DNA from: a bacterium
GTDB taxonomy: Bacteria; UBA6262; WVXT01
Reading direction: 5' to 3'
Assembly (NCBI GenBank): GCA_035530055.1
Contig: DATKVN010000095.1
Span: 1-59,695, forward strand
DNA length: 59,695 bases
Shown here: piece by piece, positions 16,450 through 57,553 of the stretch
Numbering within the stretch: the first letter of the stretch is position 1
Layout: each line of letters starts with the position of its first letter
The notes under the pieces: generated by a model
Told to the model about the DNA's origin: nothing
Seen by the model: the letters and a program-made list of their open reading frames with translations, nothing else
The model's database searches: none
Position numbers and translations under genes: made by a program

Positions 16450-16630
16450 GGAGTCCTCCCGAAAGAGGCTGTGTCATAATTAGATTTTTTGTTTGGTAGC
16501 CGCAACCTTTAGGTTGCGTTCTCGACGGAGAAATTACGCAGGCTGAAGCCTGCGACTACCCAAAACAGGGTTGCGACACAGCCTCGAAAGGGAGGGCTTA
16601 AAACGGAACCCTTGTTTTCGCAAGGACTCC
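16450..16630. repeat. GGAGTCC...GGACTCC element whose first hairpin is split and extended by an insertion
   Basis: GGAGTCC-TCCC-GAAAG-AGGCTGTGTC ... GACACAGCCT-CGAAAG-GGAG ... CCTTGT-TTTC-GCAAGG-ACTCC. AGGCTGTGTC/GACACAGCCT form a new 10-bp stem around the nested element. Confidence 0.8.
16495..16560. repeat. Nested Y-element, GGTAGC subfamily
   Basis: GGTAGC CGCAACC-TTTA-GGTTGCG (18 nt) CGCAGGC-TGAA-GCCTGCG ACTACC. Same outer-stem plus two-hairpin plan as the GGAGTAG elements. Confidence 0.8.
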
Positions 16631-16658
16631 ATATCACAAACTATCTTTTAAATAGATT

Positions 16659-16687
16659 TTGACAATTCTTGGTTTGGACGATAAAAA
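16659..16687 (+). promoter_or_regulatory. sigma70-like promoter candidate for floA
   Basis: TTGACA (16659-16664), 17-nt spacer, TAAAAA (16682-16687), about 25 nt upstream of the floA start. Confidence 0.4.
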
Positions 16688-16711
16688 CGAAAGGTTTATG
16701 GGAGGTGAGAA

Positions 16712-17704
16712 ATGGTACAGTTTTTAATTGGATTGGTAGTAATAGTCGGAGTTATTTTTGCCATAATGTTCCTCTACTTTCTGAACATTTGGGTCAGGGC
16801 TGTGGCATCGGGTGCCCACATTTCCATATTTAATCTTTTGGGAATGAAGCTGAGGGGCATTTCTCCAGCCCTGATAGTCAATGTAAAGATTATGGCAGTT
16901 AAGGCTGGCTTGCAGGTAGAGACCAGTGAACTGGAAGCCCATCATCTTGCCAGAGGAAATGTAATGCGAGTAGTTCAGGCACTAATTGCTGCTGATAAAG
17001 CCAATATACCATTGGACTTCAAACGTGGTGCAGCAATCGACCTTGCGGGAAGAGATATCTTAGAAGCAGTCCATATGAGTGTAATTCCCAAGGTAATCGA
17101 TGCTCCCGATCCCTCAAAAGGTAGGCCAACAGTAGATGCTGTAGCTATGGATGGTGTTCAGCTTTTGGCAAAGGCAAGAGTTACAGTGAGAACAAACTTA
17201 GAGAGATTAGTGGGAGGGGCAGGAGAAGATACGATTATCGCTCGAGTTGGTGAGGGCATTGTTACCACCATCGGTTCTGCGGAAACCCATAAGAAAGTTC
17301 TGGAGAATCCGGATTTGATATCTCAAAAGGTATTAGCAAAGGGGCTGGATGCAGGCACAGCATACGAAATTCTCTCCATAGATATTGCCGATGTGGATGT
17401 AGGCAAGAATATCGGAGCAGAGTTACAACAGAGACGGGCAGAGGCTGACCTGCAGATAGCCAAAGCCAAGGCTGAAGAGAGGAGAGCAATGGCGGTAGCT
17501 CGGGAGCAAGAGATGAAAGCCCTTGTCGAGGAGATGAGAGCAAAGGTTGTGGAAGCTGAAGCTGAAATTCCCAAAGCAATGGCTTACGCTTTCAGAGAAG
17601 GCCGCCTGGGAGTTATGGACTACTATAATTTTAAGAACATTCAGGCAGATACAAAAATGAGGGAGTCTCTGGCAGAAAGACCAGAAAAGAAAGAGAAGAA
17701 GTAG
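16712..17704 (+). CDS. floA: Flotillin-like protein FloA (UPF0365/YqfA family, SPFH domain)
   Basis: [16 protein letters not shown]...[21 protein letters not shown]...[14 protein letters not shown] matches my memory of Bacillus FloA. Strong GGAGGTGA RBS. Confidence 0.85.
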
Positions 17705-18077
17705 GTATGCTCGGGATTTGGTTCGCTCGCTGACAATTTTTTGTAAGCATACCGATTAAGAATCGGGATGCGGATTAGGGGGTTTGGGGGAAATAATCTG
17801 ATTTCCCCCAAGGGGTGACAGTGAGCCCCGATGGAATCGGGGTGAACGCCAGAGGGGTGAAACCCCTATGGAAGTATTCCCGAAGGGAATATCTTCTTTG
17901 AGCACCGCCAAAAATCTCAGGAGTTTATCCCGTCTTCGCGGGACTAAACTCTGATCTTCGATTTTTGGCTAAAAATTCTAATGCTCGCTACACCAAATCC
18001 TCTCGCATTAGGGGCATAGGTCGTCTTCGTTTTTTGGCTGAAATTCCAATAATTCTTCACAAACTATCTTTTAAATA
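17704..18077. repeat. Array of at least 8 different hairpins, ending in a 21-nt copy of the 16634-16654 terminus
   Basis: GGTATGCT/AGCATACC; CCGATT-AAG-AATCGG; GGGGGAAAT/ATTTCCCCC; CCCCGAT-GGA-ATCGGGG; AGGGGT-GAA-ACCCCT; TATTCCC-GAA-GGGAATA. Long nested hairpin GCCAAAAAT...ATTTTTGGC (17907-17969). TCACAAACTATCTTTTAAATA at 18057-18077. Confidence 0.8.
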
Positions 18078-18111
18078 TCGATAAATAAGCAAAGCAAAAG
18101 ATGGAGTGGAT

Positions 18112-18567
18112 ATGGAAGGTATAGAAGTAATCTTCTGGGTAGTTTTAGCACTGGTATGGTTAATATCAGGCAGTTTATTAAGGAAGAGGTCTCGCAGGGA
18201 AAAAGAACGTCTCCAAGGGGAAAGGGAGGCTTATGCAGAGACTGAAGAGGAGACAGCGGGAATGTTTCCCGAAGAAGAGTTAAGTGAAGTTTTTAAGGTC
18301 TTGAGAGGTGAAGAAAAAGGTATTCCTGTTAGTGAACAGCCTCACATTATTCTCCCTCCAGTGGAAGAACCAGAAGTTACTGAGACTATGGGAGTAAAAA
18401 AATTGCCCGAAAGAGAAATTAAAGTGCCTCCTGTTCTCGAACCGAGTTCTGAAGTGGAAGAACTGGAAATCGAGTTAGAGGATTTAGAAACCCTGGGAAG
18501 GGGGATACTCATCTCTGAGATTCTCGGTCCTCCCAGGGCTAAAAAGCCATTCAGGAGAATTCGCTGA
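18112..18567 (+). CDS. Hypothetical single-pass membrane protein with an acidic Glu/Pro-rich tail
   Basis: N-terminal TM (VIFWVVLALVWLISGSLL) followed by RKRSRREKER. E/P-rich region. Basic C-terminus ILGPPRAKKPFRRIR. ATG 18112 is 5 nt after GGAG; GTG 18106 is an alternative start. Confidence 0.5.
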   Translation: MEGIEVIFWVVLALVWLISGSLLRKRSRREKERLQGEREAYAETEEETAGMFPEEELSEVFKVLRGEEKGIPVSEQPHIILPPVEEPEVTETMGVKKLPEREIKVPPVLEPSSEVEELEIELEDLETLGRGILISEILGPPRAKKPFRRIR

Positions 18568-18615
18568 AGATTATAATTTTCCCTGAATTGTTAGATGAAA
18601 AATAAGAGAGAACCA

Positions 18616-18670
18616 ACCCAAAAGGACAGGAGCAGGCTGAGAGTGTCAGTCATTATCTTTTTGGGTTTTT
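18616..18670 (+). terminator. Candidate intrinsic terminator
   Basis: ACCCAAAAG ... CTTTTTGGGT imperfect stem with inner GACA/TGTC pairing, followed by TTTT. Confidence 0.35.
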
Positions 18671-18767
18671 GTGTTTGGTAGAGCGCAAATTTCTGGTAAC
18701 TGATTATCGGCTGGGAAAAGATCGACTAACTAATTACTACAAACTGGGAAATTGAAGGAGGCTTTGA

Positions 18768-19865
18768 GTGCATATTCCTCTGGTTGATTTAAAGCGTCAG
18801 TACTTGTCGATTAAGAAAGAGATTGATGGGGCTATTAAGGAAGTCATCGATAAGAGTGCCTTTATTATGGGAGAAAATGTGCAGGGATTTGAGAATGAAT
18901 TTGCAAAATTTTGTGGAGTTAAATATGGAATAGGGACAAGTTCGGGAACCACTGCTCTTCACCTGGCACTGGTAGCTTGCGAGATTAAGCAAGGCGATGA
19001 AGTCATTACCGTTCCCTATACATTTATTGCTACTACGGAAGCAATATCTCATACTGGTGCGAAAGTTGTTTTCGTAGATATTGAAGATAGAAGTTATAAT
19101 ATGGATTCTGAGAAGATTGAACAGGCGATTACGGAAAAAACCAGAGCGATTATCCCCGTTCATCTATTTGGTCAACCTGCCGATATGGATAAGATTATGG
19201 AGATTGCTAAAAAGCACAATCTCGTTGTAATTGAAGATGCTTGCCAGGCCCATGGTGCCGAGTACAAAGGGAAGAAGGTGGGAAGCCTGGGAGATATTGC
19301 CTGCTTCAGCTTTTATCCCGGAAAAAATTTGGGCGCTTACGGAGATGCAGGGATGGCAATCACGGATAATCAGAAATTGGCAGAAAAGATGAGTTTATTG
19401 AGGAATCATGGTTACCAGAGAAAATATTACCACGAAATAGAAGGATATAATTATCGGCTGGACGCAATCCAGGCTGCGATACTGCGAGTAAAGTTGAGAC
19501 ATCTTGAGGAATGGACGGAAAAGAGGCGAAGAAACGCCAAATTATATGATGAATTACTCAAAGGGAGTGGAGTTAAAACCCCACTGGAAATGGAATATGC
19601 CAAACATGTCTATCACCTTTATGTAATTGGAATAGAGAAAAGAGAGGAATTGTACTTAAGGCTAAAGAAGAACGAGATTTCTACAGCCATCCATTATCCT
19701 CTACCTTTACACCTTCAACAAGCATACACTTACCTTGGTTATAAAAAAGGTGATTTTCCTATCTCTGAAGCCTGCACGGAAAGATTGCTTTCTCTTCCCA
19801 TGTTTCCCGAATTGACTGAAGATGAAATTAAAAAAATTGTGGAGATAATAAGGAAAGAAAATTGA
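18768..19865 (+). CDS. DegT/DnrJ/EryC1/StrS-family PLP-dependent sugar aminotransferase (WbpE/GnnB-like)
   Basis: [10 protein letters not shown]..., [34 protein letters not shown], and [16 protein letters not shown] (PLP-lysine motif). GTG start 6 nt after AAGGAGG. Confidence 0.85.
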
Positions 19866-22522
19866 AACAAAAAACTCAAAATGTTTTAAAAATTCCCATT
19901 ATTATCCTTTCAGGTTTTTATATTTTCTGGACCTACTTTTTCTATCGCAACTATTTTATTAAAGGGGGCTTTCTGGTTTCGTTGAAATGGATAGTTAATA
20001 TCTTTTCCAATCTCCGATATCCGCACAATTTTAGTTTGGGCAGATTCCTTACCTCAACAGGTTACTACCTTTTGTTATTTGTTGGCTTGGGAATAATTTG
20101 TATGATTGCTTTTGGCATCGGCAGGAAGATTCTAAAGTTATTAAGGATTGAGGGAAAGTCTATATTAGAAAGTACTATTTTTGCTTTAGGCCTGGGATTT
20201 GGCTCTTTGTCATTAATGATGTTTGGCCTGGGTATTTTGAAGTTATACTATACATGGGTAATCTATTCTGTGTTGGGAGTATTGAGTGTTTTTTCATTTT
20301 TCGAAGTTAAGAAGGTTTGGAAACAGAAACCTAGATTACCGTCGCCTAAGACCGGACCTACAATGTTTACCATATTTTTTTGGGGAATGCTGGGAGTAGC
20401 TGCAGTAATAAATTTAGCCGGAGCTCTGGTCCCGGCAGTATTCTATGATTCTTTGGTATTTCATTTAGCAGTTCCCAGCCTGTACAAGATAAGTCATGGG
20501 ATAAGATATATTGAAACCATATTCACCTCTCAATTCCCACAAAATATGCAAATGTTATATACCTTGAGTCTCTTATTAGGGACACATATTCTGGCGAAAC
20601 TTATGCACTGGATAATGGGGATACTTGTAGTTCTACTGGTTTACACATTCGGCCGCAAGTATTTTAACTATCGGGTAGGACTACTAGCGGCAGCTATATT
20701 TTATACAATTCCTATGGTCGCCATGCAATCCCGCGTGACAGGAGTCGACCTTTGTCTGACTTTTTACGAGTTCCTGGCGGTCTTCGCCTTGGTGAATTGG
20801 TTTGTTATAAATGGAAGGGATGAGAAACAGAAGAGAGCTCGAGGCAGTTGGTTAATCACGGCTGGTATATTTAGCGGTTTGGCCATGGGAACAAAATATA
20901 CTGCTATGTACGGTTTTCTTCTATTTGCTATTTCTATTTTCCTGATAACAATAATAGTACATAAGGAAAAAATAAAAATATCGTTTAAGAAAACTTTTCT
21001 ATTTTGTGCTGTAGCTACAGCTCTATTCTCTCCCTGGTTAATAAAGAACACCGTTTATACGAACAATCCATTCCACCCATTTCTGAGTAGCATGTTCAAG
21101 AGTAAAAATTTTTACCTTGACTCTAAATACGCGCGTATAGATATTGAAGTGTACTTGAACAGGGGGGCTAAGAAATGGTCCACATACTCTACAAGGAATA
21201 TAAAAGAGTGGTTGATATTTCCCTGGACTCTTACGAAGAAAGGCAATGATTCCAATTCTTTTGTTGGACCCATATTTTTATATCTGCTTCCTTTGTTGTT
21301 CTTTTTGAGAAAAGAGAGTCTGATCAAATTTTTGATTTTTTTGGGAGTAGCTTGGTTTTTTGCCTGGAGTTTGTTAGCCACCAGAAATTTAAGATATTTT
21401 ATTTCCGGACTTACTCTATTTGGGATAATAATTTCCTATCTTCTAATAAAAGTTGAAAAGGAAAATAGATACTTTACAAAGATATTAATTTTTCTTGTTT
21501 TCCTTATGTTGATAAATAATATTGGCTGGAGTTTAATTATACTTACCAAGAACAAAGACCCCTGGGGCGTGGTTTTGGGCAGGGAATCGAGGGAGGAATA
21601 TTTATATAGGGATAGCATAGGCTTTAACCTAATGCCCTATTATTTTCCAGTGGTCAAGTATATTAATGAAAATTTACCATTGGATGCAAAGGTTTTGTTT
21701 ATAGGCGAAGCGAGAGGTTATTATTGCGAGAGAGAGTTTGTTACCAGTCTGGCCGAAGACCCCTACAGTATTGTTATCAGATTGGTGAGATCTTGCAAGG
21801 ATACTGATGAGTTGTTAGAAAGACTTAAGAATTTGGGCATTACCCATGTTTTGTATAATCGAAGGGAGGGATATCGTCTAAAAGGGTACAAAATTTTCGA
21901 TTGGCAAGATGAGGATTTTCCAATTTTCCATAAGTTCTGGAGGAACAACCTGAAGCTAATCTGTGCTGAAAAAGACGTTTATCTCTTCGAGGTCAGATAT
22001 GAAGGAAATGAACGCATCAATTATGTGGAGATATACGAAACTCCGGAGATGGAGGGGTATATAATGGAGGCGAGAAACCGAATTGCTCGAAACAAGGTCG
22101 ATCAAGCCTTCAATCTCCTGCAAAAAGCCAATAAGATAATGCCTGATTCAGCAGTAGTTCATTTCAATCTTGGTTTCGTATATATGAAGAAAGGAAACCT
22201 CGAACAAGCCATAAAAGAGTGTAAATATTCCCTTGTTCTCAATCCCTATGACGGGGACGCCGCCTTACTTTTGGGGTACTTATATTTTCGGAAGAGAGAT
22301 CTAAATAATGCTTGGGAAAATTTCAAAAAAGTCATAGAATTGAAGCCAGATTCAGCTGAGGGTCACGGGAATTTGGGTTTAGTTTACGCTGAGATGAAAA
22401 AATATAAAGAGGCAATAGAGGAATTAAAGATAGCGGTGAAATTAGCTCCCAAAAATGAGAATTTCAGAAATCTGCTAACAAATCTGCAAGAAATATACTC
22501 AGTTGAAGAAAGGAGAAGATAA
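19862..22522 (+). CDS. GT-C-fold (ArnT/PMT-like) polytopic glycosyltransferase fused to C-terminal TPR repeats
   Basis: About 560 aa with more than 10 TM helices, a soluble middle domain, then TPR units ([36 protein letters not shown]...). TTG start overlaps the previous stop. Confidence 0.6.
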
Positions 22523-24120: not shown

Positions 24121-24158
24121 TTCTCCAGGTATAAGAATGGAGTATGGAAGGAGAAACT

Positions 24159-25109: not shown

Positions 25110-25873
25110 ACGGCAAAAAAAGAAACAATTTTAGCTGTTACTATAGACGCGGATGACTGACATCTCATTCCTTAAGTGATAGGTTCATCTTTTTCAGGTA
25201 TTTTCTGTCGATCTTTTTAGTAAGTGTAAAAGAGACACGATTTTCTCGGCGATTTTACCAATCGAATGGTCGGTGCTCTCGATTTCTTGGGTATTCTAGT
25301 CGAAGAGGATGTGGAACTTTCTTTGGCTGATGGGTTCTCTTCGATATTTAAACAAGAAAACGGAAGCTCTTCTCGAATTTTTTAAATTTTAAAAAGCTAT
25401 TATGATGTTATCTCAAAAGATGAGCTGCTTTCTATTCTGGGAGCGTTGAGAGTTACCTTAGAGAACTTTGAACAGGTGCTTACTGGGAGAGCGACTATTT
25501 CCGGAGAATTAATCAAAAAGAATTAAAAGTTGATATATATTGTTCTTTATAATTCTAATTTGATGAGAAGAATAAATGAATAAGAACGAGAAACAAAAAT
25601 TAATGACAGAACAGGGGAACACTTTTATTTCCTTACCAAAGAATTGTAAGCAATAGAATAAGCCCGGAAAAAATTGAAGACTGGCAAAATAAAAAATCTT
25701 TTAGTTTATATAAAGAAATACATCCAGTTATGAAATTTATATTAAATTTAGATTTCATTATTCCTCAAATGTTTTAAGAGATTAAAAACATCTTTAGAAG
25801 TTTCTCTTTTAGGAGATCACCTTTATTTATTATTTTTTAACATTCATTTGAATATTGCTGATAACTTAATTTA
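25110..25873. other. 764-bp ORF-poor, AT-rich spacer containing start-less ORF fragments (probable decayed genes)
   Basis: No ORF of 60 aa or more on either strand. A start-less 45-codon frame ends at about 25524 (...YYDVISKDELLSILGALRVTLENFEQVLTGRATISGELIKKN*). Composition is visibly AT-richer than the flanks. Confidence 0.5.
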
Positions 25874-32625: not shown

Positions 32626-32655
32626 TTGACAAAACGAAGTTTTTTATGTTATATT
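32626..32655 (+). promoter_or_regulatory. sigma70-like promoter of the hrcA operon
   Basis: TTGACA (32626-32631), 18-nt spacer, TATATT (32650-32655), immediately upstream of CIRCE. Confidence 0.6.
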
Positions 32656-32661
32656 ACTGTA

Positions 32662-32688
32662 TTAGCACTCGGATAGTAAGAGTGCTAA
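32662..32688 (+). promoter_or_regulatory. CIRCE operator (HrcA binding site)
   Basis: TTAGCACTC-GGATAGTAA-GAGTGCTAA matches the CIRCE consensus TTAGCACTC-N9-GAGTGCTAA perfectly, 15 nt upstream of hrcA. Confidence 0.95.
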
Positions 32689-34375: not shown

Positions 34376-34390
34376 ATTGAATTCGTTTGA

Positions 34391-34419
34391 CACTCCAACC
34401 TCCCTTTCGAGAGGACTCC
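34391..34419 (-). repeat. Inverted copy of the GGAGTCC-TCCC-GAAA arm
   Basis: ACTCCAA CCTCCC-TTTC-GAGAGG ACTCC is the reverse complement of GGAGTCCTCCCGAAAGGGAGG with 2 mismatches. Confidence 0.7.
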
Positions 34420-34427
34420 AAATAATT

Positions 34428-34477
34428 GGAGTAGCACCGCTTGCGGTGCGTTTACGCGAAACAAGTTTCGCTACTCC
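34428..34477 (-). repeat. GGAGTAG Y-element, opposite orientation to the 38831/57501 copies
   Basis: GGAGTAG CACCG-CTTG-CGGTG CGTTTACG CGAAA-CAAG-TTTCG CTACTCC. The right 24 nt equal the reverse complement of the 38831 left half. The other hairpin differs by two compensated base pairs. Confidence 0.85.
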
Positions 34478-34486
34478 AAAAATTCT

Positions 34487-34545
34487 GGAGTCCCCCGATA
34501 CATCGGGATGGTCGCCCAACTGGTCAAACTTTCGTTTGACACTCC
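34487..34545. repeat. GGAGT...ACTCC Y-element
   Basis: GGAGT C CCCGA-TACA-TCGGG (15 nt, includes a GGTCGCCC fragment) GTCAAAC-TTTC-GTTTGAC ACTCC. Confidence 0.8.
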
Positions 34546-36482: not shown

Positions 36483-36567
36483 TGTGCCTACAGATGTCAG
36501 GAGTGTGAAACGAAAGTTTCACTGGTCAAGCTTTTGCTTGACACTCCAAGAAACCATTGTAGGCACA
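36483..36567. repeat. GGAGT Y-element (36500-36547) enclosed by a 10-bp outer stem
   Basis: TGTGCCTACA (36483-36492) ... GGAGT GTGAAAC-GAAA-GTTTCAC TG GTCAAGC-TTTT-GCTTGAC ACTCC ... TGTAGGCACA (36558-36567). Confidence 0.8.
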
Positions 36568-36587
36568 GATTCAATCTGGATTTCCTT

Positions 36588-36641
36588 GGAGTAGCGGACT
36601 TTAGTCCGCGTTTTAAGACGCAGGTTGAAACCTGCTACTCC
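36588..36641 (+). repeat. GGAGTAG Y-element
   Basis: GGAGTAG CGGAC-TTTA-GTCCG CGTTTTAAGAC GCAGGT-TGAA-ACCTGC TACTCC. Confidence 0.85.
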
Positions 36642-36647
36642 AACATT

Positions 36648-36692
36648 ATTGTAGGCACAGATTTCCCGATTGAAAATCGGGATGCGGAGTAG
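36648..36692 (+). repeat. Second ATTGTAGGCACAGATT copy, a CCCGATT/AATCGGG hairpin, and an unpaired GGAGTAG arm that serves as the dnaJ Shine-Dalgarno
   Basis: ATTGTAGGCACAGATT occurs at 36648-36663 (also 36556-36571). Hairpin at 36665-36681. GGAGTAG at 36686-36692, 6 nt before the TTG start of dnaJ. Confidence 0.75.
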
Positions 36693-38672: not shown

Positions 38673-38830
38673 TTGAGTGACTCTTATCAGGGGAGGGGGA
38701 AGAACAGTAAACTTAAAGCATTTTCTTAAGTTTTATATGATATGAAAAGCATAAATATTCATTAAGATTTTGACAAATTTTTAAAGTAATTTATGAACTT
38801 TAATTATGGTATTTGGGAGTCCAGAATTTT

Positions 38831-38883
38831 GGAGTAGCGAAACTTGTTTCGCGTTAATAACGCAGAGCAAGCTCTGCTGCTCC
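38831..38883 (+). repeat. GGAGTAG Y-element
   Basis: GGAGTAG CGAAA-CTTG-TTTCG CGTTAATAAC GCAGAG-CAAG-CTCTGC TGCTCC. 51/53 identical to 57501-57553. The outer stem has a T.G pair (G.U-compatible on the + strand). Confidence 0.9.
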
Positions 38884-38891
38884 AGTCTTTT

Positions 38892-38949
38892 GGAGTCCTC
38901 CCGAAAGGGAGGTTTTGGTAGAAGGGAACCTTGCTTTCGCAAGGACTCC
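38892..38949. repeat. GGAGTCC...GGACTCC element
   Basis: GGAGTCC-TCCC-GAAA-GGGA-GG (16 nt) CCTTGC-TTTC-GCAAGG-ACTCC. Confidence 0.85.
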
Positions 38950-39953: not shown

Positions 39954-39982
39954 AAAGTGACAGGCACTTTTTCGGTTCGGGA

Positions 39983-40070
39983 GTAAATTTTACGGGGACA
40001 AGCCTTTGGGCGACCATAAAGGTCGCCCCTACGCGACCAAAATCATTACGGGCATAAAGCCCTACACTAC
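39983..40070 (-). repeat. 5'-truncated, inverted copy of the long GTAGTGTAG element at 52344-52452
   Basis: 88 nt align to the reverse complement of 52344-52431 with 2 mismatches. Contains GGGCGACC-ATAAA-GGTCGCCC+CTACGCG and ends ...GGGCATAAAGCCCTACACTAC. The left arm is absent. Confidence 0.9.
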
Positions 40071-44841: not shown

Positions 44842-46065
44842 ATGAAAGGGGATTTTTATAGAAGGAAATTATCCAGGAGAGAATTTTTTAAAATGTGTGC
44901 TTTTAGCGGCGTTGCTCTGGCGTCGGTTCCTTTGCTCGTTGATATTTTGAAAGCTGCTGCCTCCAGGCCAAAAAGTGGCGAGAAAGGTTTTATTTCCCAG
45001 AGAGAGGCGATGTTTTACAAAAAGCTGGATGAAACGACAATTCAGTGTCAGCTTTGCCCCAGGAGGTGCACACTTTCAGAGGGAATGAGAGGATTCTGTC
45101 GTTCCAGGGAGCCACATGAAGGTAAGCATTATTCAATGGTATATGGTAATCCCTGTGCCATTCACGTTGACCCCATTGAGAAGAAACCTCTTTTCCACTT
45201 TTTGCCTCAAACAGCTGCCTTCTCCATTGCCACGGCTGGCTGTAATTTGCGGTGTAAATTCTGCCAGAATTGGCAGATTTCACAGTTCCCTCCCGAGGAT
45301 ACAGTAAATTATGAATTGCCTCCGGAAGGAGTAGTCGATTTGGCTATCAAATATGACTGTCCTACAATAGCTTATACGTATTCGGAACCTTCTATATTCT
45401 ATGAATATATGTACGATACGGCTGTAATTGCCAGGGAGAGGGGAGTGAAGAACATCTATCACTCCAATGGATATCTCAACCCTGAACCTTTAAAGGAAAT
45501 TTGCAAATATCTTGATGGAGCAAACGTAGACCTGAAAGGGTTTACTCAGAAATTTTATGGAGAACTTTGTGGAGCAACTCTTAAGCCTGTTTTGAATACC
45601 CTGGAAACGCTAAAAGAAGAAGGAGTGCATGTTGAGATTACTAACCTCATTGTCCCACCTTATAATGATGGTATGGAAAAGATAAAAGAGATGTGCTTGT
45701 GGATACGCGATAATTTAGGGAAGGAAGTGCCTCTCCATTTTTCCAGGTTCCATCCACTCTATAAATTAAAGAATCTCTCACCAACTCCTGTAAGCACATT
45801 GGAGAAAGCGAGAAAAGTGGCCCTGAAAGTGGGCTTGGAGTATGTATATATAGGAAATGTGCCTGGCCATCCTGGTGAGAATACCTATTGTCCCCAAGAT
45901 GGAAAACTCCTTATCCACAGAAAGGGTTATCAAATCCTGGAGAATAATGTTGTTGGAGGAAAATGTAAATTTTGTGGCCAGCCAGTTCCAGGTGTATGGC
46001 CTGAAGAAAAGGTCAGGAAAAAGACAGAACTTCCCTCACTAAAAGTATCGAAATATTTAGGATAG
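44842..46065 (+). CDS. AmmeMemoRadiSam-type radical SAM enzyme with an N-terminal twin-arginine (Tat) signal
   Basis: SRREFFK plus a hydrophobic stretch and AAAS. CQLCPRRCTLSEGMRGFC motif. Radical SAM motif CNLRCKFC. C-terminal CPQDG...CKFCG ribbon, as in the TIGR04337 family as I remember it. Confidence 0.75.
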   Translation: MKGDFYRRKLSRREFFKMCAFSGVALASVPLLVDILKAAASRPKSGEKGFISQREAMFYKKLDETTIQCQLCPRRCTLSEGMRGFCRSREPHEGKHYSMVYGNPCAIHVDPIEKKPLFHFLPQTAAFSIATAGCNLRCKFCQNWQISQFPPEDTVNYELPPEGVVDLAIKYDCPTIAYTYSEPSIFYEYMYDTAVIARERGVKNIYHSNGYLNPEPLKEICKYLDGANVDLKGFTQKFYGELCGATLKPVLNTLETLKEEGVHVEITNLIVPPYNDGMEKIKEMCLWIRDNLGKEVPLHFSRFHPLYKLKNLSPTPVSTLEKARKVALKVGLEYVYIGNVPGHPGENTYCPQDGKLLIHRKGYQILENNVVGGKCKFCGQPVPGVWPEEKVRKKTELPSLKVSKYLG

Positions 46066-49412: not shown

Positions 49413-49500
49413 CAACCAGTAGGCTGGAGTCCTTGCGAAAGCAAGGTCGTATACCTCCCGCCCTTTCGGGCGGACTCCAAATGCATAGAGCTATCTGGTT
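49413..49500. repeat. GGAGTCC Y-element (49426-49478) inside an 8-bp outer stem
   Basis: CCAACCAG ... GGAGTC CTTGC-GAAA-GCAAG (11 nt) CCCGCCC-TTTC-GGGCGG ACTCC ... CTGGTTGG. The left arm equals the reverse complement of the 38929-38949 arm. Confidence 0.85.
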
Positions 49501-49501
49501 G

Positions 49502-49561: not shown

Positions 49562-49567
49562 AATTTT

Positions 49568-50135: not shown

Positions 50136-50171
50136 AATCTGAAATTAAGCCTTATACAGAAGGAGCAAAAA

Positions 50172-50564: not shown

Positions 50565-50675
50565 AAGATAGTTAGTTCACCCAACCCCTACACAGGGGCT
50601 GGGTTCATCATCAAGGAATTTCTTAATTTGGAAAGGTCTGGAGTCCTCCCGAAAGGGAGGTGAAAAATGACTCTG
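50561..50675. repeat. Left-end copy of the 16399 composite element, with an extra hairpin and a truncated GGAGTCC arm
   Basis: TTAAAAGATAGTTAGT matches the 16399 TIR at 15/16 and overlaps the iscU stop. ACCCAACCCCT-ACAC-AGGGGCTGGGT hairpin. GGAAAGGTCTGGAGTCCTCCCGAAAG is identical over 26 nt to 16440-16465. Confidence 0.85.
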
Positions 50676-50698
50676 ACCCCTTTTTCTAAGGGAGGGAT

Positions 50699-51430
50699 AT
50701 GTTTAAAACTATTAAAGAGGATATTCGGATAGTCTTTGAGAAGGATCCGGCAGCAAAGAACATTCTCGAGGTAATACTGTGCTATCCTGGACTCCATGCT
50801 TTGTGGTTTCATCGAATTGCCCATTTCTTCTATAAAAAGAAAGAGTATGTGATAGCCCGTTTAATTTCTCACATCAGTCGCTGGATTACGGGAGTAGAGA
50901 TTCATCCGGGAGCAACTATTGGAGGAAAATTTTTCATCGACCACGGAATGGGCGTGGTAATAGGCGAGACTACAGAGATTGGAAACAATTGTCTCCTTTA
51001 TCAGGGTGTGGTGCTGGGAGGAACGAGCCCGGAGAAAAAGAAGCGCCACCCTACTCTGGGAGACAATGTAGTTGTAGGTGCAGGAGCTACGTTGTTGGGA
51101 GCAATCAAAATTGGAGAAAATGCTCGTATCGGAGCGGGATCAGTGGTTCTAAGCGATATTCCCCCGGGAGCAACTGTGGTGGGAATACCGGGAAGGGTTG
51201 GTCTGGGTTTCAGTGGAAAAGAGATCCAGGAGCTGGAACACTCAAAACTTCCAGACCCGGTTGCCGATGCTATTCGCTTTGTTTTGAAAGAACAGGACTT
51301 GTTGGAGAAAAGGCTGAGTAAATTAGAGAATTTAGAAGGCGTTACTGGCGAAATAGATAAATATGTTGAGAAGAAAAAGAAAGAAATAGAAAAAGAATTT
51401 ACTGAGAAGAGAAATAAGAATGAGTCTTAA
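50699..51430 (+). CDS. cysE: Serine O-acetyltransferase CysE
   Basis: [15 protein letters not shown]... and [28 protein letters not shown] hexapeptide core. Confidence 0.9.
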
Positions 51431-52343
51431 AGTGGCAGATAACGTTTTAGAATTGATTGGTTCCACTCCCTTGATTAAGCTAAATCGTATTAGAGGTGGT
51501 CGGGGAGCTCATATTCTGGCAAAACTTGAATTAGCAAATCCTGGAGGAAGCGTTAAGGATAGAATTGGACTTTCTATGGTGGAAGCGGCGGAAAGGAATA
51601 GCTATTTAAAGAGAGGAGCAACCATTGTTGAACCTACAAGCGGGAATACGGGGATTGGTTTGGCATTAGTGTCTGCAGTGAAAGGATATAAGCTTGTTCT
51701 GGTAATGCCGGACAGTATGAGTGTCGAACGGAGAAAATTATTTCAGGCGTATGGAGCAAAAATTGTTCTCACCCCTGGAAGTCAAGGGATGCTGGGAGCA
51801 GTAAGGAAGGCCGAGGAGTTGGTCAGGGGAAACCGAGATTATTTTATGCCTCAGCAGTTCAATAATCCTGCCAATCCCCATATCCATTATAAGACCACAG
51901 GCGAGGAAATCTGGAAGCAGACCAGGGGAAGAATAGATGCTTTTGTAGCAGGAGTGGGAACAGGAGGCACTTTAACTGGCGTGGGAAGATTGTTGAAAAG
52001 GAAGAAGCCAGGAATAAAAATTGTTGCCGTGGAACCAAAGGGCTCCGCAGTCTTATCGGGAGGCAAGCCCGGTCCACATAAAATTCAAGGGATTGGAGCA
52101 GGATTTATACCAGAAGTTCTGGAGAGGGATTTATTGGATGGTGTTATTAAAGTTAAGGAAGAAGATGCAAAGAGAATAGCTAAGAGATTAGCGAGAGAGG
52201 AAGGGTTGCTGGTGGGAATCTCCTCTGGAGCCAATGTTTGGGCCTCTTTGCAGGTTGCCAAGAAGTTAGGTAAAGGTAAAACAGTGGTTACTATCCTGGC
52301 TGATACTGGCGAGAGATATTTAAGTACCGACCTTTTTAAGTGA
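51420..52343 (+). CDS. cysK: Cysteine synthase A (O-acetylserine sulfhydrylase) CysK
   Basis: [19 protein letters not shown] (PLP lysine), [17 protein letters not shown]. Confidence 0.92.
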
Positions 52344-52452
52344 GTAGTGTAGGGCTTTATGCCCGTAATGGTTTTGGTCGCGTAGGGGCGACCTTTATGG
52401 TCGCCCAAAGGCTTGTCCCCGTAAAAATTACGCCCATAAAGGGCTACACTAC
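52344..52452 (+). repeat. Long GTAGTGTAG...CTACACTAC element with a nested GTAG-palindrome
   Basis: Starts 1 nt after the cysK stop. GTAGTGTAG GGC-TTTAT-GCC CGTAAT [GGTTTTGGTCGC GTAG GGGCGACC-TTTAT-GGTCGCCC AAAGGCTTGTCCCCGTAAAA] ATTACG CCC-ATAAA-GGG CTACACTAC. The bracketed part is absent from 10579-10631. Confidence 0.9.
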
Positions 52453-52476
52453 TCATAAATTTTAGGATGTTTTGAA

Positions 52477-52881
52477 ATGGAAGAAAAAGGAAAAGTAGTA
52501 AAAATTGATAATGGAGTGGCTCAGGTAGAGATGGAACGGACTTCTGCTTGTGGACGATGTGGGATATGCCTGCAGAGTTCTGGGGATAAACCGATTTTAT
52601 ACGCAGAAGATTCTTTAGGAGCCCGCCCTGGGGATGAGGTACTGGTTTCTGTAGAGAGTAAACAGGTATTAAAGGCAGCGTTTCTTATCTATCTTTTTCC
52701 GCTGGTTGGCTTAATTGGTGGATATTTTCTGGGTCGAGCTGTATTGGGAACGGAGAGGACAGGCATTATTTTTGCAGGGCTAGGGTTTTTTACTACCCTC
52801 TTCCTCCTCTACCAATACGATAAGAGATTGAAGGCTCAAAAGAGTAAGGAAGCAAAAATTGTTCAAATAGTCAAAGGATAA
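52477..52881 (+). CDS. RseC/MucC-family (SoxR-reducing-system-like) small membrane protein
   Basis: GKVVKIDNGVAQVEMERTSACGRCGIC N-domain followed by two TM helices. Confidence 0.7.
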   Translation: MEEKGKVVKIDNGVAQVEMERTSACGRCGICLQSSGDKPILYAEDSLGARPGDEVLVSVESKQVLKAAFLIYLFPLVGLIGGYFLGRAVLGTERTGIIFAGLGFFTTLFLLYQYDKRLKAQKSKEAKIVQIVKG

Positions 52882-52950
52882 AGAAATTGAATATACTTGA
52901 AATTCTTTCGGGAATATTTTTAGAAAAGATAAAATAAAAAGGAAAATAGA

Positions 52951-54120
52951 ATGAAAAGAATATATCTTGACCACGCAGCTACTACGCCTGTCCATCCACA
53001 AGTAGCCGAAGCCATGGTTCCTTACTTCAGTAAAGATTTCGGTAACCCTTCCACCCTCTACTCTTATGGAAGAGAAGCTAAAGGAGCCCTGGAAGAGGCG
53101 AGAGCAAAAGTAGCTCGACTGATAGGGGCTAAACAGCCGGAAGAGATTGTTTTCACCAGCGGTGGAACCGAGGCTGACAATTTCGCATTATGTGGGATAG
53201 CTTGGGCCAATCAGAAGAAAGGAAACCATATTATTACCACTTCCATTGAGCACCACGCGGTAATTAATGCCTGCAAGTTTCTGGAAAAAAGAGGATTTAA
53301 AGTTACTTATCTTTCGGTAGATAAGAATGGACTGGTAGACCCTCTGGAAGTAACGAAAGCAATTACTGATGGAACTATATTAGTATCAGTAATGCACGCT
53401 AATAATGAAATCGGCACAGTGGAACCGATAGAAGAGATTGCAGAGATTGCCAAGGAGAAAGGAATATATTTTCACACAGACGCAGTTCAGACCGTTGGGC
53501 ACCTTCCCACAGATGTGGATAAATTTAAAGTAGACTTATTGGCAATGTCTGCACATAAACTATATGGACCCAAGGGAGTGGGAGCTCTGTATATCAGGAA
53601 AGGCACAAAGATAGTTCCTTTTCTCTATGGTGGCGAACAGGAGAATAAACGCCGGGCAAGCACAGAAAATGTTGCTGGAATTGTGGGATTTGGGGAGGCC
53701 TGTTCACTCGCTCAAAAAGATATGGCAGAGGAAGAAAAAAGCTTAACTTATTTAAGAGATAAATTAATAGAAGATATATTGAAAAGAATTAAACACAGTA
53801 GACTTAATGGTCATCCTAAAAAGAGACTTCCGGGAAATGTAAATGTGAGCGTAGAAGGTGTAGAAGGTGAATCCATGCTTCTGAATTTAGATTTAGCAGG
53901 AGTCTGTGCTTCCAGTGGTTCAGCCTGTACCTCCAGCATCCTGGAACCATCTCACGTTCTAAAAGCTATTGGTATCTCTCCTGAAGTGGCCCATAGTTCG
54001 CTTCGCTTCACTTTAGGAAAGGAGAACAATGAAGAAGATGTTAATTATGTTCTTAAAGTCTTACCCGAGATAGTGGAAAAGTTGCGTAGTATGTCGCCCA
54101 TCTATCAAAAAGAGAAATAG
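52951..54120 (+). CDS. nifS: Cysteine desulfurase (NifS/IscS class)
   Basis: IYLDHAATTP, SAHKLYGPKG (PLP lysine), and SSGSACTS (active-site Cys loop). Confidence 0.92.
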   Translation: MKRIYLDHAATTPVHPQVAEAMVPYFSKDFGNPSTLYSYGREAKGALEEARAKVARLIGAKQPEEIVFTSGGTEADNFALCGIAWANQKKGNHIITTSIEHHAVINACKFLEKRGFKVTYLSVDKNGLVDPLEVTKAITDGTILVSVMHANNEIGTVEPIEEIAEIAKEKGIYFHTDAVQTVGHLPTDVDKFKVDLLAMSAHKLYGPKGVGALYIRKGTKIVPFLYGGEQENKRRASTENVAGIVGFGEACSLAQKDMAEEEKSLTYLRDKLIEDILKRIKHSRLNGHPKKRLPGNVNVSVEGVEGESMLLNLDLAGVCASSGSACTSSILEPSHVLKAIGISPEVAHSSLRFTLGKENNEEDVNYVLKVLPEIVEKLRSMSPIYQKEK

Positions 54121-54219
54121 AATTCAGTCAAAAAAGCCTTGTAAAATAAAGGAAAAAATCTTTCATAAGTGGGGAAGGAATATATTTTTGTAGGTTCAAG
54201 AGATATATATAAATTTATT

Positions 54220-54241
54220 CCTCCCCCTTAAATGGGGGAGG
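54220..54241. repeat. Hairpin flanking the DUF559 gene (upstream)
   Basis: CCTCCCCC-TTAAAT-GGGGGAGG, 7 nt before the GTG start. Confidence 0.7.
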
Positions 54242-54247
54242 ATAAAG

Positions 54248-54637
54248 GTGGGGGTGAAATTGGGTAAGAAGTTAGTTAATACTGGAAGGAATCTTAGAAA
54301 AAATTCTACTGAGGTAGAAAGACATTTATGGAGATATTTAAGAAGAAATCAGTTAGAAGGATTTAAATTCCGACGGCAACAACCGACAGGAAGATATATA
54401 GTGGATTTCGTTAATTTTAAAAGAAAGATTGTAATAGAGGTAGATGGCGGACAACATGCAATTGGAAATACAAAAGATAGGAAAAGAGATAAGTGGTTAA
54501 GGGAGGAAGGGTTTGAGGTTCTAAGGTTTTGGGATAATGATGTTCTTAAAAATATAGAAGGTGTTTTAGAAGTTATAAGGGACAAACTCTTACTATCCCC
54601 TCACCCTAACCCTCTCCCACAAGGGGAGAGGGAATAA
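54248..54637 (+). CDS. DUF559 (Vsr-like endonuclease fold) domain protein
   Basis: LRKNSTEVERHLWRYLR...GFKFRRQQPTGRYIVDFV...IEVDGGQH...RDKWLREEGFEVLRFWDNDV. The tail PHPNPLPQGERE is encoded by a hairpin repeat. Start is uncertain (GTG 54248, GTG 54254 or TTG 54260). Confidence 0.8.
   Translation: MGVKLGKKLVNTGRNLRKNSTEVERHLWRYLRRNQLEGFKFRRQQPTGRYIVDFVNFKRKIVIEVDGGQHAIGNTKDRKRDKWLREEGFEVLRFWDNDVLKNIEGVLEVIRDKLLLSPHPNPLPQGERE
54610..54632. repeat. Hairpin forming the 3' end of the DUF559 ORF
   Basis: CCCTCTCCC-ACAAG-GGGAGAGGG, ending 2 nt before the stop codon. Confidence 0.7.
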
Positions 54638-54682
54638 AACAAAGATTTTTGACAATATTTTCAGTAAAAAAAGGAGAAGAAT

Positions 54683-55480
54683 ATGGTAAAGAAACTATTT
54701 GCACCAGTGGGAGAAAAAGAGGTTACACGAGCTATTGTAGATGAGTTTGCCAAACAGTTTTCCCAGTATGTGGAAAGCGATTGTCTTATTATAGGTGGTG
54801 GGCCCAGTGGATTAATGGCCGGGAAGGAACTGGCCACTCGTGGACTTAAAATTTTAATTGTAGAGAGAAATAATTATCTTGGTGGGGGTTTCTGGATTGG
54901 CGGGTACTTAATGAATAAGATAACCGTGAGAGAACCTGCACAGAAAGTCCTGGAAGAACTGGCTGTGCCGTATAAGGAAGTAAGCAAGGGGCTCTATGTA
55001 GCAGATGGACCTCATGCTTGTTCCAAACTTATTGGAGCTACCTGTGACAGTGGTGTGAAGTTTGCCAATATGACTGTTTTTGACGACCTCGTGCTCCGTG
55101 AGGGAGGTAAAGTGAATGGTGCTGTGATTAACTGGACGCCTATATCTTATTTACCTCGTGAGATTACCTGCGTTGACCCTGTGGCCTTAGAAGCCAAAAT
55201 GGTGATTGATGCCACTGGACACGATGCCTCGGCAGTGAGAAAATTGGAAGAGAGAGGACTAATAAAAATAAAGGGTATGGGAGCAATGTGGGTAGAGAGG
55301 TCTGAGAACCTGGTAGTGGAACATACTGGGGAAGCCTATCCTGGCCTTGTGGTAGTGGGTATGGCTGTGGCTACTACTTATGGTCTTCCCCGCATGGGAC
55401 CTACTTTTGGAGCAATGCTTCTTTCGGGAAAGAGAGGGGCAGAGGTAGTATTGGAAAAGTTGGGTATAAAAAAGAGATGA
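54683..55480 (+). CDS. thi4: Thiazole synthase Thi4, archaeal-type (no sacrificial Cys; presumed sulfide-dependent)
   Basis: [18 protein letters not shown] motif. DATGHDA (55208-55228) where yeast THI4 has, as I recall, SCGHDG. Confidence 0.8.
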
Positions 55481-56277
55481 AAATTTTCCTTTATGATGGT
55501 GGCAAGACTGAAGCTTTAGATATCGGGGAAATAGCCCGGTATCTTAAGGAGAACTCAGGTGGAGCCAAGGTTGAGGTTAGAGGCGATTTTATTGGTCAGG
55601 TTACAAAAGGAATGGAGGATTCCTCCCTGAGAGAGTTGGCTGAAGAGATAGCCAGATGTAAAATTCGAGACCTTCGTAGTTACCATTCTACTTTTGATCC
55701 ACTCACTGCTGAGGTAGAATACGAGAAAAGGAGACTGCAAGATTCAGAGAATAGAAGTTTGGGCATACTTTATGACGGCTTCAAGCTCCAGACATTATAT
55801 CAGGACTTGATAACAGAAGAAGAACGCAATTGGCATTGTCTGGCGATTATTTTTACAGACCAATTATTCGGAACCTGGGATGAACATAACCGTCGTTACC
55901 ATGCCCGGGTAAGCGTGTATGGATTTCCCACCATTATTTCCACTACGGGTATCGTGGAAGCTCCAGCTAAACCCAGGGAATTCTATTTACAGAAACAATG
56001 GGGAATTGATACAATTACCCTGAAGAAAAGATTTAAAGATAAGTTTATAGACTACGACGACACGCGGCTGACTGAAGTAATGAAAGGCTACTGTATACAG
56101 TCTCTATTTTTTTACATATCGGGCGAGCCTTTTTGTGAAGATAATAAATGTAGACTCTATAACGCACACTGGCAGGAAGAGGTAATAAATGCCCAGCTTG
56201 CCAGGCCCGAATTTTGCAAAAAACACGAGATGCTAATCAACAACATCAGGAATGGCAGACTGAAAATTAACCATTAA
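55477..56277 (+). CDS. Hypothetical protein, archaemetzincin-like scaffold lacking the HExxH motif
   Basis: ATGA-coupled to thi4. The C-terminal pattern C-x4-C-x-L-x19-C-x2-H (56134-56226) mirrors the archaemetzincin CX4CXMX17CXXC motif, but FFYISGEPF replaces HExxHxxGxxH. Confidence 0.4.
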
Positions 56278-56283
56278 AAGATT

Positions 56284-56323
56284 CATCCAGCTCCTGAGAC
56301 CCTGATTTTTGCAGGGGCTGGAT
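56284..56323 (+). promoter_or_regulatory. 12-bp leader hairpin upstream of the homocysteine-synthesis gene (possible cis-regulatory RNA)
   Basis: ATCCAGCTCCTG ... CAGGGGCTGGAT with one U.G pair. Loop AGACCCUGAUUUUUG contains CCCU, complementary to the AAGGAGG SD at 56330-56336. Confidence 0.3.
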
Positions 56324-56341
56324 TCACATAAGGAGGAATGA

Positions 56342-57499
56342 ATGCCTAAAACTTTTGCAGAGATTAATGAAAAGATTAGAAATGGCGAAGCAGTGGTGGT
56401 AACTGCTGAAGAGGTTATCGACCTTGTAAAAGAAAAGGGAGAAAAAAAGGTTGCTAAGGAAGTAGACGTGGTAACCACAGCTACCTTTGGTCCAATGTGT
56501 TCCTCTGGAGCTTTACTGAATTTTGGGCATAGCGATCCGCCAATAAAGATGCAGAAGGTGTGGCTGAATGATGTTCCAGCTTATGCGGGGGTGGCGGCAG
56601 TTGATGCTTATATTGGAGCAACTGAGCTTTCTGAAACCAAATGGATGGAATATGGCGGAGCACATGTGATTGAGGATTTGATTTCAGGCAAAAAGGTGAG
56701 GCTTAGAGCTACTTCGTATGGAACGGATTGTTATCCCAGAAAAGAATTCGACTCTTACATTACCTTAGACTCGATCAATCAGGCAATTCTTTTTAATCCC
56801 AGGAATGCTTATCAAAATTATTCAGTAGCTACTAACTCATCGGATAGAACAATCTATACATATATGGGTATTCTCTTGCCCAACTTTGGTAATGCAAATT
56901 ATTGTAACTGTTCACAGCTCTCACCTTTAATTAATGACCCCTTATATCGCACTATCGGTGTGGGAACCAGGATATTTCTCGGTGGAGCACAGGGTTACAT
57001 TGCCTGGGAAGGCACACAACATAATCCCCGCCAGAAGAGGGATGAGAAAACTAAAATACCGATAGCTCCTGCAGGAACCCTGTGTTTGATAGGCAATTTG
57101 AAAGAGATGAGCCGCGATTTTCTAAGGGCAGCAATCTTCTACAAGTATGGTGTTACCCTTACAGTAGGGGTGGGGATACCCATTCCTATTCTCGATGAAG
57201 AGATGGCACATTTTGTCTCCATCTCCGATGAGGAGATATATACTACAATACTTGATTACAGTGTCCCCAGAAGAGAAAAACCAAATCTGGGCAGAGTAAG
57301 TTATAAAGAGTTAAGAAACGGGGAAATTGAAATAAAAAAGAAGAGGGTTCCTACTGCACCACTCTCCAGTCTTTACAAAGCCAGGGAGATAGCTCAGATT
57401 CTGAAAGAGTGGATTAAAAAAGGGAAGTTCTTCTTACAAGAGCCCATTCAACGGTTACCGGTGGATGAGAAATTTAAGCCTTTAGATATTAGACGTTAA
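56342..57499 (+). CDS. COG1900/DUF39 homocysteine biosynthesis protein (aspartate-semialdehyde sulfurtransferase type)
   Basis: KTFAEINEKI..GEAVVVTAEE..VDVVTTATFGPMCSSGA and GTRIFLGGAQGYI motifs recall the methanogen MA1821 family. Followed by a NIL-ferredoxin. Confidence 0.75.
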   Translation: MPKTFAEINEKIRNGEAVVVTAEEVIDLVKEKGEKKVAKEVDVVTTATFGPMCSSGALLNFGHSDPPIKMQKVWLNDVPAYAGVAAVDAYIGATELSETKWMEYGGAHVIEDLISGKKVRLRATSYGTDCYPRKEFDSYITLDSINQAILFNPRNAYQNYSVATNSSDRTIYTYMGILLPNFGNANYCNCSQLSPLINDPLYRTIGVGTRIFLGGAQGYIAWEGTQHNPRQKRDEKTKIPIAPAGTLCLIGNLKEMSRDFLRAAIFYKYGVTLTVGVGIPIPILDEEMAHFVSISDEEIYTTILDYSVPRREKPNLGRVSYKELRNGEIEIKKKRVPTAPLSSLYKAREIAQILKEWIKKGKFFLQEPIQRLPVDEKFKPLDIRR

Positions 57500-57500
57500 T

Positions 57501-57553
57501 GGAGTAGCGAAACTTGTTTCGCGATAATAACGCAGAGCAAGCTCTGCTACTCC
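57501..57553 (+). repeat. GGAGTAG Y-element
   Basis: GGAGTAG CGAAA-CTTG-TTTCG CGATAATAAC GCAGAG-CAAG-CTCTGC TACTCC. Starts 2 nt after the stop codon. Followed by TTGTAGGCA, as at 36651. Confidence 0.9.

Follow-up and report, generated by a model that had tools for sequence, protein, structure and literature searches.

REP doublets of the RAYT-linked kind very probably account for Y-shaped intergenic elements in an uncultured bacterium

The 59,695-nucleotide contig DATKVN010000095.1 (GenBank assembly GCA_035530055.1), called the window below and always meant at its full length, comes from an uncultured bacterium and carries intergenic elements in which an outer stem of GGAGT against ACTCC encloses two small hairpins, giving a Y. 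An initial annotation had taken these as copies of one plan and had read their compensated stem differences as the mark of a functional structured, RNA-like element. We find instead that the elements are, with high probability, mobile doublets of repetitive extragenic palindromic (REP) sequences of the kind linked to RAYTs (REP-associated tyrosine transposases), a known class of bacterial element rather than a new structured RNA. Each Y is an inverted, tags-outward heterodimer of two REP units, the same kind of doublet as the bacterial interspersed mosaic elements (BIMEs) of E. coli and the REP doublets (REPINs) of Pseudomonas.

Results

Elements are inverted pairs of tagged hairpins

The REP unit consists of a 5' tag, GGAGT plus 2–3 nt (AG, CC or GT), followed by a hairpin of 6–8 bp with a loop of 2–4 nt. 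The GGAGTAGC tag includes the canonical GTAG, and the full pattern of tag and hairpin (GGAGTAGC + GC-NNNNC-TT-GNNNN-GC) is seen in 38 distinct perfect units. In a doublet two units stand inverted about a linker of 5–14 nt, each folds upon itself, and the two tags pair together to make the outer stem. The halves are not alike: a G-type stem (GAAAC or GAGAC) is joined with an A-type stem (AGAGC, AGAAC or ACCGC). Among the matches listed in the genome search described below, 82 doublets have linkers of 5–14 nt.

The window has about 41% G+C and all of its long open reading frames (ORFs) lie on the + strand. The pattern GGAGT-N20-50-ACTCC occurs eight times, compared with 1.10 ± 1.03 in shuffled sequence (0 of 100 shuffles reach 8), and all eight matches fall in the intergenic 8.5% (5.1 kb). 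Perfect hairpins of at least 6 bp are four to five times denser there than in the 54.6 kb of coding sequence (9.3 vs 2.1 per kb). Tagged hairpins with stems of at least 6 bp number about 25 in the intergenic DNA, whereas the coding sequence has a handful of weaker ones, mostly with 5-bp stems. Nine doublets are held by the window.

The sequences quoted in the initial annotation were all recovered: 34428–34477, 36588–36641, 38831–38883 and 57501–57553 of the GGAGTAGC type, 16495–16560 (a GGTAGC variant), 36500–36547 and 34487–34545 (GGAGTGT/GGAGTCC types), and the GCGAAGC/GCTTCGC hairpin at 6335–6351. The hairpin-pair layout claimed for seven elements holds; the idea of a single family does not, as three or four REP classes with a common GGAGT tag are present. 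The outer stem at 38831 has one mismatch.

The hairpins covary and the Y is favored in DNA

The earlier annotation had called for a covariation test on collected copies. Half-units were gathered by a pattern having no pairing requirement, which gave 80 distinct sequences. Full pairing at the five free positions was found in 38 of the 80 and pairing at four positions in another 13, whereas chance matches pair at zero to two. The covariation score of the unfiltered set was 0.519, far above the shuffled value of 0.176 ± 0.017 (0 of 500 shuffles as high), and controls in which the partner was slid gave 0.06–0.20. The 12 free bases of the tag-only search pattern also fold as GC-NNNNC-TT/AA-GNNNN-GC hairpins. 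Between units, which have tag, length, loop and flanks in common, the differences are single compensated pairs, and the compensated changes reported earlier stand, such as AGAG/CTCT to ACCG/CGGT between the reverse complement of 38831 and 34428. Structure rather than sequence is preserved, as had been proposed by the annotation, which also left room for single-stranded DNA or a cruciform; a functional structured RNA-like element is unsupported. Such covariation is consistent with a transposase that recognizes single-stranded DNA in its folded form.

When the GGAGTAGC type is folded as RNA, the lowest energy usually belongs to a rod and not to the Y, since its two loops, CTTG and CAAG, are complementary. 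Under DNA folding parameters the Y has the lowest energy, or almost the lowest. The share of Watson–Crick pairs is 88% within hairpins versus 45% for the rod alternative, in which hairpin 1 pairs with hairpin 2, and thus the Y is the form backed by sequence comparison.

Comparison with the near-identical contigs L001–L004 (99.9%) was uninformative except for one single-nucleotide difference in a REP stem. In L002, a 99.98% identical contig from another sample, a G-to-A change at 36620, one of only two differences, breaks the first stem pair of the REP hairpin at 36588–36641.

A RAYT gene lies between the halves of related elements

Species-representative genomes were searched with the tag-only pattern GGAGTAGC-N12-GCG-N15-30-GCTACTCC, which gave at least 120 stretches, and the ORFs of these loci were clustered; the window's own genome is not among the matches listed. 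Among the matches listed, one recurrent small protein emerged. It scores 90.3 and 95.8 bits against the NCBIfam model NF047646, 'REP-associated tyrosine transposase' (cutoff 80), and only 22 and 21 bits against the IS200 model NF033573 (cutoff 55). Pfam Y1_Tnp matches the protein too, among solved structures E. coli TnpA-REP (4ER8, E = 1.5e-8) is its closest relative, and the HUH histidines and the Y-x3-N-x3-H residues are invariant or nearly so in 12 homologues. Judged by these profile scores and residues, the protein linked to the elements is a RAYT and not an ordinary IS200 transposase.

All four RAYT genes among the matches listed (L076, L097, L082 and L069) are bracketed by elements. Further RAYT homologues formed 62 clusters, from which contigs L130–L137 were examined. 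In these the ORF starts directly beside a left unit (GGAGTAGC plus hairpin), and beyond its stop codon comes an inverted right unit (hairpin plus GCTACTCC). As the ORF lies exactly between the left REP and the inverted right REP, the Y element is a RAYT unit in which a linker of 5–14 nt replaces the gene. The RAYT units show this G-type/A-type difference between their two ends, as the doublets do between their halves.

Metagenome contigs were scanned with a RAYT profile, which gave 80 loci, and 40 of these have a GGAGT-tagged hairpin within about 150 nt. The 40 include the GGAGTAGC, GGAGTCC and GGAGTGT classes. L143 and L165 have the GGAGTCC class with the same CCTTGC-TTTC-GCAAGG hairpin as the window, and L159, L162 and L191, as well as L104, have the GGAGTGT class. 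Since every class occurs beside RAYT genes, all those lumped in the initial annotation are RAYT-flanking REP classes sharing the GGAGT tag. Many RAYT contigs are only 1–2 kb long, for which the repeats account through fragmented assembly.

In L134–L137 (3001–3564) the RAYT gene occupies the same site of a cell-wall cluster, between mraY and murD, in two diverged genomes. This placement fits single-copy, vertically kept RAYTs.

Several observations weigh against this assignment. The window has no RAYT gene (tblastn over the 59.7 kb) and the transposase link is therefore drawn from related genomes and from metagenomes. With a strict detector, half of the RAYT loci from metagenomes (40 of 80) lacked a GGAGT-tagged hairpin; some of these contigs are truncated or may carry other tags. 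The constant tag is GGAGT and not strict GTAG, the classes having GTAG, GTCC and GTGT at the canonical positions; given that GT plus two variable nucleotides is kept, we take the GGAGTCC and GGAGTGT tags as variants of the REP tag. Finally, the insertion between rsmE and PAC2 considered below is composite and has no simple target-site signature.

Elements of the window

57501..57553, + strand: REP doublet of the GGAGTAGC class; left REP GGAGTAGC-GAAAC-TT-GTTTC-GC, linker, inverted right REP (AGAGC stem).
38831..38883, + strand: REP doublet of the GGAGTAGC class; GAAAC and AGAGC stems, right tag with one mismatch (GCTGCTCC).
38892..38949, + strand: REP doublet of the GGAGTCC class; GGAGT-CCTCCC-GAAA-GGGAGG ... 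CCTTGC-TTTC-GCAAGG-ACTCC.
34428..34477, - strand: REP doublet of the GGAGTAGC class, reversed in orientation; the ACCGC stem precedes the GAAAC stem.
34487..34545, + strand: mixed doublet of a GGAGTCC-type REP (CCCGAT/ATCGGG) and an inverted GGAGTGT-type REP (GTCAAAC/GTTTGAC).
34380..34419, - strand: GGAGTGT REP remnant (…TTTGACACTCC) and GGAGTCC-type REP singlet (CCTCCCTTTCGAGAGGACTCC).
36500..36547, + strand: REP doublet of the GGAGTGT class; GGAGT-GTGAAAC-GAAA-GTTTCAC .. GTCAAGC-TTTT-GCTTGAC-ACTCC.
36588..36641, + strand: REP doublet of the GGAGTAGC class, TTTA/TGAA-loop subfamily; GGACT and AGGTT stems.
16450..16630, + strand: composite element; inverted-repeat carrier (AGGCTGTGTC…GACACAGCCT) interrupting the first hairpin, CCTCCC-GAAA-GGGAGG, of a GGAGTCC-type doublet.
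49426..49478, + strand: REP doublet of the GGAGTCC class; CCTTGC-GAAA-GCAAGG and CCGCCC-TTTC-GGGCGG.
6329..6423, + strand: cluster of REP singlets and remnants, of which the next four lines are members.
6329–6351: GGAGTAGC-type singlet.
6357–6377: degenerate GGAGTCC type.
6381–6406, - strand: GTAG-tagged GGGCGACC hairpin.
6409–6423: remnant, …GCAAGGACTCC.
50640..50660, + strand: GGAGTCC-type REP singlet (GGAGTCCTCCCGAAAGGGAGG).
58005..58026, + strand: GGAGTAGC-type REP singlet with one G-T stem pair (AGGCT/AGTCT).

The 57501 element begins 2 nt past the stop codon of the ORF at 56342–57499, and a 53-mer identical to the whole of it is present in L023. Both orientations relative to transcription occur (34428 vs 38831), and 34397–34494 is an inverted copy of 38815–38914 at 86% identity. 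RAYT genes are flanked by hairpins of the 38892 class in L143 and L165 and by doublets with the 36500 plan in L191, L162, L159 and L104, and L107 holds a near copy of the 36588 element. In the composite at 16450..16630 the carrier sits in the loop of a REP hairpin, CGAAAG is duplicated at it, and it contains a GGTAGC-type doublet of its own (16495–16560). The nesting suggests that insertion into REP loops took place or that the whole composite was mobilized.

Orthologous spacers of close relatives differ

The DnaK homologues of the window form a clade at 86–98% identity, below which identity drops to about 75%; the window's clade is labeled 'Clostridia' and several of its next-closest matches are labeled Omnitrophota. 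Five syntenic loci of the clade, L125–L129 (86–97% identical DnaK), were compared. The genes are collinear and highly similar, whereas the spacers (lengths in nt) are dissimilar:

grpE–dnaK: window 269; L125 270, L126 78, L127 108, L128 84, L129 57.
dnaK–dnaJ: window 219; L125 197, L126 132, L127 31, L128 32, L129 106.
rsmE–PAC2: window 321; L125 157, L126 156, L127 227, L128 219, L129 217.
PAC2–miaB-like gene: window 146; L125 3, L126 3, L127 121, L128 88, L129 39.

The 34428 doublet has a different element in its place in L125, the relative with 97% identical DnaK, and is absent from L126–L129. The grpE–dnaK spacer of L125 holds the same GGTAGC composite (5820–5965) as that at window 16450–16630 and not the window's doublets. 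The 36500 doublet is absent from the dnaK–dnaJ spacer in L125–L129. Between rsmE and PAC2, 38831..38883 sits within a block of about 164 nt that carries two doublets; L125 and L126 lack the block and match the window on both sides of it, a clean case of filled versus empty site. As orthologous spacers differ in this way between close relatives, the elements are insertions that turn over and not conserved parts of the dnaK/heat-shock operon.

Unlike the REP-filled spacers, the CIRCE operator upstream of hrcA is kept in the window and in L125–L128, the four relatives whose locus covers it. In the window this region (32626–32688) has a near-consensus promoter, TTGACA-18-TATATT with a TG extension, followed by the operator TTAGCACTC-N9-GAGTGCTAA at about 32662–32688.

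Alternative explanations

The reading preferred in the initial annotation, that the elements are primarily structured RNA (protectors of mRNA 3' ends, processing sites or a small Y-shaped RNA), is improbable, although it has several points in its favor. All genes of the window lie on the + strand and thus the elements are probably transcribed within operons, their folds are well above shuffled controls in stability (z = -3.3 to -6.2), some stems contain G-T pairs, and the 57501 element begins 2 nt past a stop codon. E. coli REPs are moreover known to stabilize upstream mRNA. An RNA function is countered by the occurrence of both orientations and by Rfam, which gave nothing on the elements at the gathering threshold nor up to E = 5. 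At the same spacers of relatives with 86–97% identical DnaK the elements are absent, replaced or moved, their RNA fold is mostly the rod and not the conserved Y, and they frame a transposase gene, being the ends of the RAYT unit without its gene. We consequently do not uphold the claim of a functional structured RNA. RNA roles of REPs are discussed in PMC3733652. An effect at the RNA level on flanking genes, such as 3' end protection of mRNA, would be secondary to mobility. Secondary mRNA stabilization, or interference with translation termination at 57501, may occur.

That the elements are intrinsic (Rho-independent) terminators is extremely unlikely. They are indeed GC-rich hairpins 3' of genes, and terminator-like sites are mildly enriched in the 32–51 kb region (33 vs 18.2 ± 4.3), but a T run follows none of the GGAGTAGC doublets, whose tails read CCAAAAA, CCAACAT and CCTCTTA, and the scan flagged no whole GGAGTAGC doublet, only a partial match at 38865 and a single hairpin at 38897. 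Moreover, elements lie within operon-like units (grpE–dnaK–dnaJ), and the twin-hairpin plan and conserved tags are foreign to terminators.

We give equally little credence to duplex DNA sites or cruciforms bound by a host protein of the nucleoid or gyrase type and kept for chromosome structure. E. coli BIMEs bind integration host factor and gyrase, and the conserved doublet positions are perfectly dyad-symmetric. However, stem positions that vary do so in concert inside each arm, a sign of folding and not of a linear duplex site, and the high turnover between close relatives and the RAYT association do not agree with such a role. The chance that these are unrelated palindromes, or miniature inverted-repeat transposable elements (MITEs) of a DDE-type insertion sequence, is similarly negligible: several hairpin sequences do coexist and the nested 16450–16630 resembles MITE pile-ups, but the shared tag, length, loop and flanks with single compensated differences, the strong excess over shuffles, the plasmid and viral results given below and the lack of a recurrent DDE transposase nearby (the Y1/HUH RAYT being the sole recurrent gene among the matches listed) all point elsewhere.

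Integron attC sites, CRISPR repeats, DDE-type MITEs and group II intron targets were considered as identities. Their defining sequence features do not match the anatomy, and because of this misfit and because the RAYT is the only recurrent neighbor among the matches listed, they were dropped.

Occurrence in other genomes

Apart from scattered chance matches, the stretches found with the tag-only pattern come from metagenome-assembled genomes (MAGs), many of which have several loci among the matches listed. The phylum labels are those in the titles of the MAG records. Among the matches listed they include Clostridia (CAYOFG, WJOT, DAOVHK), WOR-3, Stahlbacteria, Cloacimonadota and Anaerolineae, and also Zixibacteria, Ignavibacteria, Omnitrophica, the candidate phyla radiation (CPR) and Poribacteria. 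In the same set 47 doublets lie between co-directional ORFs, 12 between convergent and 8 between divergent ORFs. No plasmid matched the elements, and the single match in viral contigs was a high-GC chance one without hairpins. A literature search with the literal motif returned only primer noise.

Units of 23 nt are identical across these differently labeled MAGs, whose housekeeping proteins are only about 50% identical. For example, the SOHZ 'Anaerolineales' MAG has an identical 23-mer REP, yet its DnaK is only 52% identical to that of the window, which supports a real distance between MAGs sharing REP units. A single REP–RAYT system, with its GGAGT tag extended and its doublets obligate heterodimers (three-way junctions), spread across MAGs of anoxic sediment and groundwater labeled as at least five phyla, is a tentative proposal that we consider rather doubtful. 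REP–RAYT systems are usually described as vertically inherited and lineage-specific. If the proposal is true, the cross-phylum spread would mean horizontal transfer or extreme conservation of the system, and the compensated 4-bp stem code might set the specificity of each RAYT for its own REPs.

Other repeats and variation in the window

Two inverted copies (39979–40070 and 52344–52435, 96.7% identical) of an element of about 92 nt are bounded by GTAGTGTAGGGC… inverted repeats and contain a GTAG-tagged GGGCGACC…GGTCGCCC hairpin; L022 has a 91% copy. One copy lies in the PAC2–miaB-like gene spacer, which measures just 3 nt in both L125 and L126, and the element thus represents a second family of mobile repeats. 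A further GTAG-tagged hairpin family (TTGTAGGCACAGATTCAATCTGTGC) is present in the window (36558–36578 and 36648–36660), in L126 (7900–8031) and in L129 (3800–3905). Several relatives have it as the occupant of the dnaK–dnaJ spacer, and in the window part of it is overwritten.

The 401-nt spacer at 17705–18105 is full of unrelated hairpins, for example TTGGGGGAAAT…ATTTCCCCCAA and CCCCGAT-GGA-ATCGGGG. Since 17954–18076 is 85–93% identical to repeats of the CAYOFG MAG (L111, L093), the window and that lineage have further repeat families in common. The 764 nt at 25110–25873, between a glycosyltransferase-like gene and a methyltransferase gene, have no long ORF, low G+C (about 0.34–0.35) and no REP-type hairpins. 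In L001 (99.9% identical), 16 of 22 differences cluster in about 700 nt (45270–45951) at the radical-SAM gene 44842–46065, which suggests a local recombination tract.

Discussion

The properties on which the assignment to REP doublets is based have documented counterparts. In Pseudomonas the REPIN is a replicative unit in which compensatory changes are common, and both long-hairpin and 'clover' folds have been proposed (PMC3116915). PMC3733652 describes REPs as hairpins with a GTAG tag, divided into sub-families by complementary changes in the stem; many form dimers with the tags outside (HH), often heterodimers with different stems, and RAYT genes have REPs on both sides as REPtrons. Preserved hairpins are thus a documented REP/REPIN property (PMC3116915, PMC3733652). 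For binding single-stranded DNA and cleaving it at CT, E. coli TnpA-REP depends on the hairpin together with the 5' GTAG (PMC3479197).

The E. coli REP/BIME system with TnpA-REP (4ER8) is alike in having a short palindrome, imperfect or perfect, a 5' tag with GTAG, inverted pairs and extragenic, multi-copy occurrence, and in the y and z REPs the paired units differ in stem, as here. The REP-flanked gene and the HUH and Y-x3-N-x3-H residues (PMC3479197) are also shared. In contrast to E. coli, the tag here is longer (GGAGT + 2–3 nt), pairs with its partner and closes a three-way junction; the stems are shorter (6–8 bp), perfect and bulge-free, and the linkers are only 5–14 nt. The hosts are uncultured sediment and groundwater lineages, and the RAYT is distant from TnpA-REP (E = 1.5e-8). 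Pseudomonas REPINs (Bertels & Rainey 2011, PMC3116915) are likewise inverted doublets derived from RAYT-flanking REPs, the singlets being decayed doublets, but most of them are near-homodimers, folding into a single long hairpin with a period of about 70 nt. The halves of the present doublets consistently differ and hence the clover or Y form is supported here.

The families of Di Nocera et al. 2013 (PMC3733652) have a one-end tag, complementary-stem sub-families, loops of 2–4 nt and HH heterodimers, and lie mostly between unidirectional and convergent ORFs, as do those described here. That paper lists 24 GTAG families; the phyla found here (WOR-3/Stahlbacteria, Cloacimonadota, Anaerolineae, Zixibacteria, Omnitrophota-like, CPR) are not named in its abstract and the sections consulted. 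IS200/IS605 elements and their gene-less derivatives share a Y1 HUH transposase, sub-terminal single-stranded DNA hairpins, a 5' guide or tag and unlike left and right ends. However, the protein here fits the RAYT model and is under the IS200 cutoff (22 vs 55 bits), tnpB is absent, and the elements are much shorter.

The doublet is a miniature, gene-less form of the RAYT unit (left REP, RAYT gene, inverted right REP). By analogy with the E. coli and Pseudomonas systems, it is most likely mobilized in trans by a genomic RAYT acting as an HUH/Y1 single-strand DNA transposase. The RAYT would bind the folded REP hairpin and 5' tag on single-stranded DNA and cut nearby, and the transposition route would likewise follow those systems. 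Copies with still-paired stems would remain substrates and be propagated, and sub-families with alternative stems would arise. That stems change by compensated pairs only would then be explained, as only paired-stem copies could remain substrates.

These findings explain most of the unusual hairpin-rich intergenic DNA of the window as mobile REP doublets, and annotation of such sites as regulatory RNA or as terminators should therefore be avoided. The REP/BIME/REPIN class is known; here it is found in a poorly studied sediment lineage, and REP/RAYT systems are extended to uncultured lineages, namely the window's 'Clostridia'-labeled clade, WOR-3/Stahlbacteria, Cloacimonadota, Anaerolineae and Zixibacteria. 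Of all the features, only the sharing of identical REP units between MAGs labeled as different phyla might repay further study. The elements also provide a compact natural series of compensated stem variants, usable to test whether a RAYT reads hairpin shape or sequence.

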